A stretch of DNA of 33,788 nucleotides from a virus: the UHGV virus genome UHGV-0101498; one strand, given 5' to 3'. Numbering within the stretch: the first letter of the stretch is position 1; each line of letters starts with the position of its first letter. A model generated the notes under the pieces. It ran no database searches and had not been told where the DNA came from. It saw only the letters and a program-made list of their open reading frames with translations. The translations under genes were made by a program, and so were the position numbers. Below are positions 50 to 33,788 of the stretch, one piece after another.

Positions 50-586
50 ATGCGTCGCGCTAACGATCCGCAACGGCGAGAAAAAATTATCCAGGCCACG
101 CTGGAGGCGGTGAAACTTTACGGAATACATGCTGTTACGCACCGCAAAATTGCTACCCTTGCCGGGGTACCGTTGGGATCGATGACCTACTATTTTTCAG
201 GAATTGATGAGTTGTTGCTGGAGGCGTTCAGCAGTTTTACTGAGATTATGTCCCGGCAATATCAGGCATTTTTTAGCGATGTTAGTGATGCTCAAGGCGC
301 ATGCCAGGCTATCACCGATATGATCTACAGCTCACAGGTTGCAACGCCGGATAATATGGAGCTGATGTACCAGCTCTACGCGCTGGCTAGCCGAAAACCG
401 CTATTAAAAACGGTAATGCAAAACTGGATGCAGCGCAGTCAGCAAACGCTCGAACAATGGTTTGAACCCGGAACCGCCCGCGCGCTTGATGCGTTTATTG
501 AGGGGATGACGCTGCATTTTGTCACCGACCGTAAGCCGCTATCGCGCGAGGAGATTTTGAGGATGGTTGAGAGGGTTGCAGGGTAG
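50..586 (+). CDS. rcdA: TetR-family transcriptional regulator, RcdA/YbjK-like (178 aa); host gene flanking the prophage
   Basis: ORF 20..586 (TTG at 20); in-frame ATG at 50 gives [40 protein letters not shown] with an N-terminal HTH. Identity to E. coli RcdA is recalled, not searched. Confidence 0.7.
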
Positions 587-635
587 TAGATAAATTTTAG
601 ATAACAAAAAACCCATTTATGTAAACGGGTTAATG

Positions 636-669
636 AAAACAATAAGTTAGATTAAAAACAATAAGTTAG
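636..669. repeat. Tandem direct repeat, 2 x AAAACAATAAGTTAG separated by ATTA, in the flank between rcdA and int
   Basis: Seen directly; function unknown (possible arm-type or IHF-like site next to attL). Confidence 0.5.
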
Positions 670-690
670 GTTGGTGGTCAGTGGTGGTTA

Positions 691-1743
691 TTACGGGGTA
701 ATGCCAACCGCTGCCGCCACTTTGTCGCCACTTGGCAGCGTTGCCAGAGGATTGAAACGGAGCGCCGTTTCCAGATGATCCGGTGCCAGATGTGCGTAAC
801 GCATAGTCATTTTTATATCGTGGTGTCCGAGAATTTTTTGTAAGGCCAGAATGTTTCCACCCGACATCATGAAGTGCGCCGCAAACGTATGGCGCAGAAC
901 GTGTGTGAGTTGACCGCGAGGGAGCACGATAGACGTTTTTTCCATCACGGATAAAAATTGAAAATAGCAGTCTGTGAAGAAATTGAACCCATCAAGCGCC
1001 ATGATCTCTTCGTAAAGCTCTTTACTGATAGGGATGCTTCTGTTTTTCTTCCCCTTCGTTCTGACAAAGGTAATTCGGTATTTGGTCACCTGTGAGCGGG
1101 TAAGATTTACGGCTTCACGCCAGCGTGCGCCTGTGCTTAAGCATATCTTAACTACCAGTGCCAGAATTGGGTCCTGACGTTTGCAATCAGCCAGCAATTC
1201 AACAATCTGCTCATGGGTAAGCCATGCCATCTCTTTTTCTGCGATGGTGAATTTTCGCATGTTCTCCAGTGGGTTCGGATACGACCATTCGCCCAGACGG
1301 GATAGTTCGCTAAAAACACTACTTAGATAGCTTTGCTCCAGGTTAATGGTGACCGGGCTTGCTCCTTTCTTCCATTTCTCGCTGAAGTAGATCTCGCCTG
1401 TCAGGCGTTTATCTCGATAGTGGGCAAACATTTTAGAGGTGAGATCGGTTGCAAGAGGATTGCCCAGAGCGTCAACCATCAACAGCAATTTGTCATAGAC
1501 ATGCTGCCCAGCTGTCAGAGATTTACCATGTAGTTTGAACCATAGCTCAACCACGTCTTTCAGTGTTCGACGATCCACTGATTCACCCAGCCAGGGCTTT
1601 GCTTCGGTTTCTTCCATCGTGTGGCGCTCAAAAGCCAGTGCTTCGCCTTTGGTGACGAATTGTTTACGCACACGACGCCCACTTCGTCCGGCGGGGTAAC
1701 ATTCGCAAAGCCATTTCCCAGTGGTGAGTTTTCGTACTGCCAT
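691..1743 (-). CDS. int: Tyrosine integrase, P2 Int-like (351 aa)
   Basis: ORF 691..1899; internal ATG at 1743 preceded by GGAGGG; C-terminus carries the tyrosine-recombinase motifs (HVLRHTFAAH...LGHHDIKMTMRYAHL). Confidence 0.85.
   Translation of the reverse strand: MAVRKLTTGKWLCECYPAGRSGRRVRKQFVTKGEALAFERHTMEETEAKPWLGESVDRRTLKDVVELWFKLHGKSLTAGQHVYDKLLLMVDALGNPLATDLTSKMFAHYRDKRLTGEIYFSEKWKKGASPVTINLEQSYLSSVFSELSRLGEWSYPNPLENMRKFTIAEKEMAWLTHEQIVELLADCKRQDPILALVVKICLSTGARWREAVNLTRSQVTKYRITFVRTKGKKNRSIPISKELYEEIMALDGFNFFTDCYFQFLSVMEKTSIVLPRGQLTHVLRHTFAAHFMMSGGNILALQKILGHHDIKMTMRYAHLAPDHLETALRFNPLATLPSGDKVAAAVGITP
708..730. repeat. Putative attL core (overlaps the 3' end of int)
   Basis: 22/23 identity with 33738-33760 in otherwise unrelated sequence context. 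Confidence 0.5.
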
Positions 1744-2853: not shown

Positions 2854-3057
2854 ATGACACCTAACATTTCAATTACTCTGAATACACCACATGTCACAAT
2901 CGAACGTTATAGCGAACTGACTGGCCTTTCTATTGATACGATTAACGACATGTTGGCTGATGGCCGACTACCTCGTCATCGTCTTCGTAAAGACAAAAAA
3001 CGTGAAAAGGTAATGATTAACCTGGCTGCTCTGACTGTTGATGCTTTGTCTGCTTAA
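2854..3057 (+). CDS. apl: Apl-like excisionase/repressor (Cox functional analogue), 67 aa
   Basis: First gene of the rightward early operon, divergent from cI; small HTH protein; RBS GGAA 9 nt upstream. Confidence 0.65.
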
Positions 3058-3121: not shown

Positions 3122-3631
3122 ATGTTTGATTACCAAGTTTCCAAACATCCACATTTTGATGAAGCCTGTCGTGCATTCGCACTGCGCCACAATCTGGTGC
3201 AACTGGCAGAACGTGCGGGCATGAATGTGCAGATTCTGCGGAACAAGCTGAACCCAGCTCAACCTCATTTATTAACCGCACCAGAAATCTGGCTGCTTAC
3301 CGATCTGACTGAAGATTCAACGTTGGTAGATGGTTTTCTGGCACAGATTCATTGTCTGCCATGTGTACCGATTAATGAGGTAGCAAAAGAGAAACTGCCG
3401 CATTACGTCATGAGCGCAACTGCAGAGATCGGGCGTGTTGCAGCAGGTGCGGTATCTGGTGATGTAAAAACTAGTGCCGGTCGTCGTGATGCTATCAGCA
3501 GCATTAACTCTGTAACACGACTGATGGCGCTGGCTGCTGTTTCATTGCAGGCCCGTTTACAGGCTAATCCTGCGATGGCGAGTGCAGTTGATACCGTGAC
3601 TGGCCTCGGTGCTTCATTCGGTTTGCTGTGA
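3122..3631 (+). CDS. cII: CII-like lysogeny-establishment activator (169 aa)
   Basis: [24 protein letters not shown]... with [25 protein letters not shown], strongly resembling 186 CII as recalled; GGAG 9 nt before the ATG at 3122 (ORF track starts at TTG 3113). Confidence 0.8.
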
Positions 3632-3638
3632 GGTGCTT

Positions 3639-3935
3639 ATGCTGACGAAAGAACCATCATTTGCATCGCTGCTGGTAAAACAAAGCCCGGCAATGCACTA
3701 CGGTCACGGCTGGATCACGGGTGAGGATGGAAAACGCTGGCATCCATGTCATTCACAAGATGAATTGCTGTCTGAATTGACCACGAGGAAACGGAGAAAG
3801 TCCAAATGTATGCGGCAGAAAGTGAAGTGGTTTATCAGTTTCGTTACAGAGGGGAGAGTTATTCAGTACCTGAAGATGATTTGCTCTGTTGCTATCCGTC
3901 ATTGTCGGGCGATGGCAGTTACTTTTTCACGTTAA
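3639..3935 (+). CDS. Hypothetical early protein (position of 186 fil); the 3' half may not be coding
   Basis: ATG 3639 with GAGGTG RBS directly after the cII stop; the distal part is Cys/Arg-rich and overlaps the next ORF by 130 nt in another frame. Confidence 0.4.
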   Translation: MLTKEPSFASLLVKQSPAMHYGHGWITGEDGKRWHPCHSQDELLSELTTRKRRKSKCMRQKVKWFISFVTEGRVIQYLKMICSVAIRHCRAMAVTFSR

Positions 3936-4030
3936 AGGATGGGACGTTTTTACGGGGAGAGCAGGTTAAAGAGACGATACGAAAAAATGTATCTCCTCTT
4001 GAGCGTTACCGTAAGAACAAAGAACGATAG
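3806..4030 (+). CDS. Hypothetical early protein (74 aa)
   Basis: ATG with GGAG 9 nt upstream; protein-like composition. Confidence 0.5.
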   Translation: MYAAESEVVYQFRYRGESYSVPEDDLLCCYPSLSGDGSYFFTLKDGTFLRGEQVKETIRKNVSPLERYRKNKER

Positions 4031-4052
4031 CTGCGTTTGGGGGATATGAAGT

Positions 4053-4394
4053 ATGGCAATTAATGGCGCTGCAGCAACTGTTCCATTAAGCCCCGGTGAA
4101 CGCCTGAATGGACTTAATCACATTGCAGAGTTAAGGGCGAAAGTTTTTGGCCTGAATATTGAGTCAGAGCTTGAGCGGTTTATTAAAGATATGCGTGATC
4201 CACGGGATATTAATTATGAACGAAATAAACGAGCACTGGCTGCTATATTCTTTATAGCAAAAATTCCAGCTGAACGTCATAGCATCAGCATTAATGAGCT
4301 GACCACTGACGAAAAGCGGGAGTTGATTAAAGTAATGAATCATCTTCGTGCAGTGGTGAGCTTATTTCCCAGACGGCTAGCCATGCCGAATTAA
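4053..4394 (+). CDS. Hypothetical early protein (113 aa)
   Basis: ORF with upstream G-rich RBS; early operon position. Confidence 0.55.
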   Translation: MAINGAAATVPLSPGERLNGLNHIAELRAKVFGLNIESELERFIKDMRDPRDINYERNKRALAAIFFIAKIPAERHSISINELTTDEKRELIKVMNHLRAVVSLFPRRLAMPN

Positions 4395-20838: not shown

Positions 20839-21436
20839 TCTGCTGCCACCGGGTTCAACACCACTGGAGCGCCGACTGGCGCAAACCTGCAGCGGGATTT
20901 CTGATCTGCAGGTGCCGCTTCGTGACTTGTGGAATCCGGCAACCTGTCCGGTCAGTTTCCTGCCTTATCTCGCCTGGGCGTTCTCTGTGGATCGCTGGGA
21001 CGAGGGCTGGACAGAAAGCGTCAAGCGCCAGGTGGTGAAGGATGCTTTTTATATTCATCAGCATAAAGGGACCACCAGTGCCGTGCGGCGGGTGGTGGAG
21101 CCGTTCGGATTCCTGATCCGCATTATTGAGTGGTGGCAGACCGGAGAAACACCGGGCACGTTTCGCCTGGATATCGGCGTGCAGGACCAGGGCATCACTG
21201 AAGATACCTATCTGGAACTTGAGCGACTGATAAGCGATGCCAAACCATGTAGCCGCCACATGATCGGCATGTCCATCAATCTGCAGACCAGCGGCCCGCA
21301 TTGGGTGGGAGCCGCCAGCTATCTTGGCGAAGAAATCACGATCTATCCGTATATCAACGAAACGATTATTTCCGGTGGCACCGCGCATGAAGGCGGGGCG
21401 GTCCATGTTATTGACACAATGAGAGTGAATCCATGA
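20831..21436 (+). CDS. I: Baseplate/tail protein (P2 gpI-like)
   Basis: Position and length; overlaps the J stop. Confidence 0.75.
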   Translation: MNSLLPPGSTPLERRLAQTCSGISDLQVPLRDLWNPATCPVSFLPYLAWAFSVDRWDEGWTESVKRQVVKDAFYIHQHKGTTSAVRRVVEPFGFLIRIIEWWQTGETPGTFRLDIGVQDQGITEDTYLELERLISDAKPCSRHMIGMSINLQTSGPHWVGAASYLGEEITIYPYINETIISGGTAHEGGAVHVIDTMRVNP

Positions 21437-33738: not shown

Positions 33739-33760
33739 CGCTGCCGCCAATTTGTCGCCA
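33738..33760. repeat. Putative attR core
   Basis: 22/23 match to 708-730, immediately after the ogr stop. Confidence 0.5.
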
Positions 33761-33788
33761 TCGTTAAAAAACAGTGCTTCTAACATCA

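Follow-up and report, generated by a model that had tools for sequence, protein, structure and literature searches.

The question raised by this locus is what a perfect tandem repeat is doing in the short stretch between a host gene, rcdA, and the integrase gene of the prophage lying beside it, that is, whether it belongs to the host or to the phage, and which protein would bind it. In the window (here, the whole stretch of 33,788 nucleotides that was analysed), the 15-mer AAAACAATAAGTTAG occurs exactly twice, at 636-650 and 655-669, with a gap of 4 bp (ATTA), just as the sequence-only reading had described it, and the context reads GGGTTAATG, then AAAACAATAAGTTAG ATTA AAAACAATAAGTTAG, then GTTGG. 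With a repeat finder, the units lengthen to 18 nt with 94% identity and a period of 19 bp. No third copy of AAAACAATAAGTTAG was found at up to 3 mismatches on either strand of the whole 33.8-kb window, in which the pair is also the sole exact direct repeat of at least 15 nt at an offset of 4-45 bp. None of 100 dinucleotide-preserving shuffles reached 15 nt, the longest such repeat being 13 nt, and the 15-bp repeat is real and beyond chance.

The side of the prophage junction on which the repeat lies was determined by megablast of window positions 300-700 against 5426 complete E. coli genomes, 5423 of which were matched, with at least 80% query coverage in 1123 only. In the sampled matches of lower coverage, K-12 among them, the match ends at query position 316-317, which is window position 615-616. 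After AACAAAAAACCCAT, K-12 continues with the host rcdA/ybjL terminator hairpin (CAACCTTGAACC...GGTTGATGGG), unlike the window, which continues with TTATGTAAACGGG. The 15-mer has no match at up to 3 mismatches in the K-12 locus, and the repeat is missing from the rcdA-ybjL intergenic region of all the empty-site genomes sampled, K-12 included; the phage-side segment 617-735 is present in 1122 of the 5426 complete genomes. Because the homology to prophage-free E. coli ends at 616, the attL core is set at 603-616, and the repeats lie 20-53 bp into the phage-derived side, between the core and int. They are phage DNA of the P' arm of attL, not host DNA, and their earlier placement between rcdA and the prophage end was wrong, given that the homology ends at 616 and both copies stand on the prophage side of it.

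The window stops about 31 bp short of the attR core, and for this reason the core was set from the empty-site genomes together with two phage records, the attR of Klebsiella phage 4LV2017 and the attP of Klebsiella phage KP12. The core block AACAAAAAACCCAT is inside the annotated attL and attR of 4LV2017, which has the same arm as the window and whose annotated attL and attR cover ...CAGGCAACAAAAAACCCAT, and it lies between the P and P' arms in KP12. The latter has a contiguous attP without host DNA and with both repeats inside, in the order ogr, arm-type pair, about 55 bp, core, TTATGTAAACGGGTTAATG, the two repeats, spacer, arm-type pair, and int. In 4LV2017 (Elveevirus), KP12, and vB_EcoM-813R9, the arm is 96-98% identical over the att-int region, with both repeats and the same core. 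The annotation of 4LV2017 covers the core only (attL/attR), the feature tables of KP12 and 813R9 hold no att features for the stretches examined, and none of the three records has an annotation or a described function for the repeats. The record of vB_EcoM-813R9, which includes host flank, was dropped as a source of attP, being a prophage extraction with the host genes rcdA and ybjJ. The KP12 record (OM835953.1) is filed under Vequintavirinae, but the clone in it, KP12_3, has ogr, attP, and int and is P2/186-like; probably, a temperate phage was induced or co-purified and then misclassified.

From left to right, the region begins with rcdA (ybjK), a host gene given for context only, on the plus strand at 50-586, as mapped from the RefSeq annotation of K-12 and other E. 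coli loci. The core follows at 603-616, the identity block common to attB, attL, attR, and attP, and the crossover point is somewhere within or beside it. An intrinsic terminator of the int (lysogenic) transcript was located on the minus strand at 600-631 by a terminator scan (RNA fold of -9 kcal/mol, z = -2.6); its hairpin runs from 631 to 610, and the A-run of the core supplies the U-tract behind it. Integration swaps the host rcdA/ybjL bidirectional terminator hairpin for this phage hairpin, and because the phage hairpin has no T-run in the direction of rcdA, the termination of rcdA may change in lysogens. Beyond the hairpin come the two repeat copies, both on the plus strand: copy 1 (636-650) carries an IHF-type element, AAACAATAAGTTA, at 637-649, which reads away from the core, and copy 2 (655-669) carries the other at 656-668, in a position homologous to that of the P'-arm IHF footprint of phage 186. 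A lineage-specific spacer of 42 bp with candidate excisionase operators fills 670-711 (plus strand), where 186 has its five Apl operators, and varies in sequence by clade; it is followed by two tandem P'-arm Int arm-type sites, TGCCGCCACTT and TGTCGCCACTT, at 712-733 (plus strand), of the 186-type consensus and inside the 3' end of int.

The int gene itself, on the minus strand at 691-1743 with its stop at 691-693, encodes a 350-aa tyrosine integrase of the P2/186 family (Pfam Int_N plus Phage_integrase) that has 97-100% identity with annotated integrases of phage records; its mechanical ORF (691-1899) has 402 aa from an upstream ATG, and the annotated homologues start with MAVRKL and have 350 aa. 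A 67-aa Cox/Apl-like excisionase and repressor, the probable RDF, is encoded on the plus strand at 2854-3057. This protein matches PHROG 575, 'Cox-like excisionase and repressor', with E = 1e-29, and has a homologue annotated as Cox in vB_EcoM-813R9; a Pfam search of it gave no match. At the other end of the window, on the attR side and just 3' of an ogr-like gene, two tandem P-arm Int arm-type sites, TGCCGCCAATT and TGTCGCCATCG, are found on the plus strand at 33742-33763, and the contiguous layout of the P arm is visible in the attR of 4LV2017 and the attP of KP12. Between these P-arm Int sites and the core, there is also an inverted IHF-type element at 33781-33788, which runs past the window end so that half of it is inside the window. 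Its reverse complement, AATCATGATGTTA, agrees with 8 of the 9 consensus positions, its counterpart in KP12 is at 571-590, and 186 has a parallel to it in its P-arm IHF footprint (20959-20985).

The consensus of IHF is WATCARNNNNTTR (WATCAR-N4-TTR), with a footprint of more than 25 bp (bioRxiv 10.1101/382655). With IHF scoring made by consensus match alone, each repeat copy (AAACAATAAGTTA) agrees at 8 of the 9 specified positions, the sole miss being position 3, where A stands for T. Such a match by itself is weak, since a relaxed single motif is met by chance about 0.3 times per kb per strand. The family of the integrase was surveyed with an integrase scan taking one genome per species; this yielded 77 loci from Enterobacterales whose Int is 47-99% identical to that of the window. 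The arms were taken as the DNA downstream of int, anchored on the GCCA arm-type pair only, and in the anchored arms two A-rich CAR-N4-TTA elements align by eye despite little other shared sequence. Among 39 non-redundant arms, 26 have the elements 19 bp apart from start to start and 6 have them 20 bp apart, and in 33 the distance from the arm pair to site 2, the int-proximal one, is 57-59 bp; the element of copy 1 likewise has a conserved position in the relatives, 77-78 bp from the arm-type pair. The family consensus in the 39 arms reads A-A-W-C-A-R-N4-T-T-R, with an information content of 1.0-2.0 bits at the consensus positions and of less than 0.8 at most N4 and flank positions. Within the spacer of the motif, N3 is A in about 80% of the arms, a conservation beyond what the IHF consensus requires.

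The arm-anchored procedure takes the best consensus match within range and is biased by this picking, and hence a strict position-free scan was run with the composite A[AT]CA[AG]N4TT[AG]-N7-8-A[AT]CA[AG]N4TT[AG] over both strands of the 77 loci (1.58 Mb). It gave 42 matches, one per locus, all downstream of int and in one orientation, against about 0.2-0.3 matches expected from the single-motif density of 0.31 per kb per strand, and no match outside the att arms in the 1.58 Mb of the 77 loci. The matches include loci with extra genes separating int from att, and since the 42 loci have homologous arms, they speak for conservation and not for 42 independent events. The motif pair was found with several cores, among them the rcdA terminator, another terminator, and ssrA, and with several excisionases (19 loci with a Cox-like RDF as in the window, 6 with one like Apl of 186, and 17 with no detectable homologue of either), with integrase clade, core type, and RDF type being phylogenetically confounded among the survey loci. 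With the consensus positions kept while N4, the flanks, the core, and the neighbouring spacer change, the pattern is that expected from purifying selection for two IHF-type sites.

Some features of the surveyed arms stand apart from this question. The P' Int arm-type pair is kept in 41 of 81 extracted arms; in the rest, int and att are separated by additional genes. Such insertions beside the arm were seen in several related prophages (at 3450-4070 of locus L006, and in five other loci), with the att arm, its IHF-type pair, and its arm sites being intact up to 3 kb from int. One inserted ORF, on the minus strand, encodes Gly/Pro-rich repeats of the PGPV type and is present in E. coli ESBL 15 and Silvania. 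Moreover, this Enterobacterales prophage arm turns up beside rcdA, with 99% Int identity, in two contigs under the label 'MAG: Bacillota bacterium', probably through a binning or contamination error.

The closest experimental point of reference is phage 186 (NC_001317), whose IHF DNase I footprint is annotated at 21057-21086 in the P' arm. The elements of 186 homologous to our repeats are AATCAATAGTATG at 21050-21062 and TATCATTGACATA at 21070-21082, 20 bp apart; the footprint spans the whole of the int-proximal element and only the 3' part of the core-proximal one, and it is followed by the five Apl operators (21075-21121) and then by Int arm sites up to 21147. Measured to the arm pair, the elements are 79 and 59 bp away in 186 and 78 and 59 bp away in the window, the distances in 186 having been counted by hand from the last two annotated arm units of a phage that has a third GCCA unit. 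The order of the modules is common to both, with core, IHF-type elements, RDF-operator region, two GCCA-type sites, and int, the arm-type consensus is alike, and the lysogeny switch of the window is 186-like as well, with CI (Phage_CI_repr, Phage_CI_C), the Cox/Apl-like gene, and CII (CP76 family). In contrast, the core is the rcdA terminator in the window and tRNA-Ile (ileY) in 186, the two integrases are only about 54% identical, the 67-aa Cox-like RDF of the window has no detectable similarity to Apl of 186 and is of a different family, the int terminator is between the core and the IHF-type sites in the window but in the P arm in 186, and the two elements are identical 15-mers in the window but differ in 186. 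IHF binding was footprinted in 186, and for the putative sites of the window this homologous footprint is the strongest, though indirect, support for IHF as the binder. Taken with the consensus match and the family-wide conservation, it favours the IHF-type site that had been one of the options proposed earlier for the repeat.

In phage lambda, the consensus element of the H' site reads away from the core, with the core on one side of it and the P' Int arm-type sites on the other, and it presumably makes a U-bend by which Int bound on the arm is brought to the core. The lambda attP has a single H' with an upstream A-tract (consensus and A-tract: 10.1101/382655), beside three P' arm sites, as opposed to the two elements of overlapping range, 19 bp apart, of the window; the integrase families differ, and the Xis sites of lambda are on the other arm, whereas the putative RDF region of the window is on the same arm as the IHF-type sites. 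For the attP of P2, Yu and Haggard-Ljungquist reportedly placed IHF in the P arm and the Cox boxes in the P' arm in 1993. The general logic of a heterobivalent Int, IHF, and Cox is common to P2 and the window (PMC3448106), although the Int arm consensus of P2 type is tgTGGaCa and the arm sites of the window are of the 186 type instead. The literature covered on tandem IHF sites in P2-like att arms, older papers excepted, does not describe this pair.

A tandem direct repeat in an att arm could also be bound by proteins of the phage other than IHF. The integrase itself is the first to be considered, its N-terminal domain binding arm-type sites that in P2 and 186 are tandem direct repeats in the arm beside int, just as the 15-mers are, and the repeats do co-occur with this integrase family across the examined loci. 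But the arm consensus of the P2/186 family is of two types, tgTGGaCa (P2) and tgccGCCActt (186) (Nilsson et al. 2011, PMC3448106), the GenBank record of 186 gives it as YAYCGCCAYTY with three sites to the left and two to the right of the core, and in the window the 186-type consensus is present as tandem pairs of its own on both arms, at 712-733 and 33742-33763, unrelated to the 15-mer. Nor does the 15-mer recur on the P arm, either in the stretch inside the window or in KP12 or 4LV2017. With no resemblance to the GCCAC type and no recurrence on the P arm, the repeat was rejected as an Int arm-type site, and we regard this role as very unlikely; the earlier suggestion of an integration-related arm holds inasmuch as the repeat sits in an attachment-site arm, and it fails inasmuch as the Int arm-type sites are the different pair at 712-733. 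Somewhat less improbable, but still unlikely, is that the repeats are operators of the Cox/Apl-like RDF, bound head-to-tail in the P' arm to direct excision. RDFs do bind direct repeats in att arms (PMC7498355), the Apl array of 186 (21075-21121) shares the arm with the int-proximal IHF element and overlaps it, and with 9 bp from the GTTAG closing copy 2 (665) to the GTGG at 674, an array phased at about 10 bp over 665/674/684 would be conceivable. However, the operators of P2-like RDFs are direct repeats 10-11 bp apart, in at least 3 adjacent units, with similar sequences at att and at pR-pL (PMC7498355), and our repeat has two units with a period of 19 bp. The switch region at 2730-2853 shares no 7-mer with the repeat, and only the 6-mer AAACAA; since P2-like RDF operators at att and switch resemble each other, the lack of a related motif in pR-pL speaks against such an operator. 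In addition, the motif pair persists with unrelated or undetectable RDFs, it is the adjacent spacer that varies by clade, and conservation falls on the IHF consensus positions.

A host cis-regulatory element downstream of rcdA, which the sequence-only reading had also offered, has nothing in its favour but its nearness to rcdA, and its probability is practically nil. The reading is excluded because the empty sites do not have the repeat and a contiguous phage attP carries it; the sequence was seen only with the prophage arm, of which the segment 617-735 is found in just those 1122 genomes, and the identical repeat in empty-site genomes that would have made it a host feature is absent from them. 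The remaining alternative is a neutral and recent duplication, by slippage in an AT-rich spacer, with the second copy having no binding role. It draws on the facts that only the lineage with at least 99% Int identity has the 15/15 match, and that in relatives with 93% Int identity the elements differ, the changes with respect to the window clustering in 643-658 at the same length. Against it, a pair of elements alike in consensus positions, spacing, and arm distance is kept down to about 50% Int identity and across cores, and since the two-site architecture is kept across such integrases and different cores, it is old and selected; a second copy without a role is distinctly unlikely. The two copies match fully or are one base apart where Int identity is at least 99%, and they read AAAACAATGACTTGC and ATAATCAATAAGTTAG in the arms with about 93%. 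Comparison with seven arms of this latter group shows about nine substitutions in 16 bp, with nearly identical flanks. The clustered changes at 643-658 suggest gene conversion, or deletion and re-duplication, with the 19-bp spacing preserved, and the perfect repeat points to two sites of older origin, once diverged, that were recently homogenised, rather than to a new duplication of a single site. Homogenisation accounts for the perfect identity only, and not for the existence of the pair.

As for the excisionase, the spacer at 670-711 is a better candidate than the repeat for its operators, by analogy with 186, because it is in the place of the five Apl operators. It contains GTGG at 674, 681, and 684, of which 674 and 684 are 10 bp apart. 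In the switch, at 2795-2828 on the minus strand, GT[GT][GA] recurs at 2825, 2815, 2805, and 2795 with an exact period of 10 bp, between a putative pR (TTGACA at 2737-2742, a 17-bp spacer, TAAAGT) and the cox-like gene. The GTGG set of the spacer and the GT[GT][GA] set of the switch may be the Cox-like operators at att and switch; the two sets are on opposite strands. The cI ORF was listed from GTG 2795, and its true start is probably TTG at about 2729 or GTG at about 2708, by comparison with CI of 186, which leaves room for pR.

Overall, we consider it probable that the repeats are tandem IHF sites in the P' arm of a 186-like prophage (Peduoviridae; 4LV2017/Elveevirus-like) integrated at the rcdA terminator, and there is a good chance that IHF is their binder, as predicted from the sequence of the elements and of their homologues. 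Most likely, the pair is an ordinary accessory-factor module of the integration/excision machinery. IHF bound on the P' arm would sharply bend the DNA into a U, folding the arm back, and an Int held by its N-terminal domains at 712-733 would then reach the core at 603-616 with its catalytic domains. This bend would assemble both the integrative (attP x attB) and the excisive (attL x attR) intasomes, as with lambda H' and in phage 186, and the excision from attL would take place with the Cox-like RDF beside the IHF-type sites. Given that the two elements are 19 bp apart and the footprint of IHF exceeds 25 bp, they would probably be occupied alternatively, or one of them partially.

This overlap leads to a further and doubtful idea, in which the IHF-type pair at a fixed spacing of 19-20 bp would be a previously undescribed 'two-register' bend module of 186-type att sites. 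Speculatively, IHF would sit on one element in the integrative intasome and on the other in the excisive one, an RDF array abutting or overlapping the int-proximal element might push IHF to the core-proximal one, and this shift might move the position of the bend, and hence the direction of recombination. An overlap of RDF operators with the int-proximal element is annotated in 186.

In summary, the prophage boundary at this locus is moved to 603-616, and the repeat becomes phage att-arm DNA, which gives a full list of attL/attP parts for a prophage type present in about one in five complete E. coli genomes. The composite of two IHF-type elements plus a GCCA arm pair is a very specific signature that could help to find the att arms belonging to 186-type integrases, even where extra genes split int from att. 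Finally, the conserved pairing at 19-20 bp poses a modest mechanistic question for this family of phages, that is, how two overlapping IHF-type sites are used.
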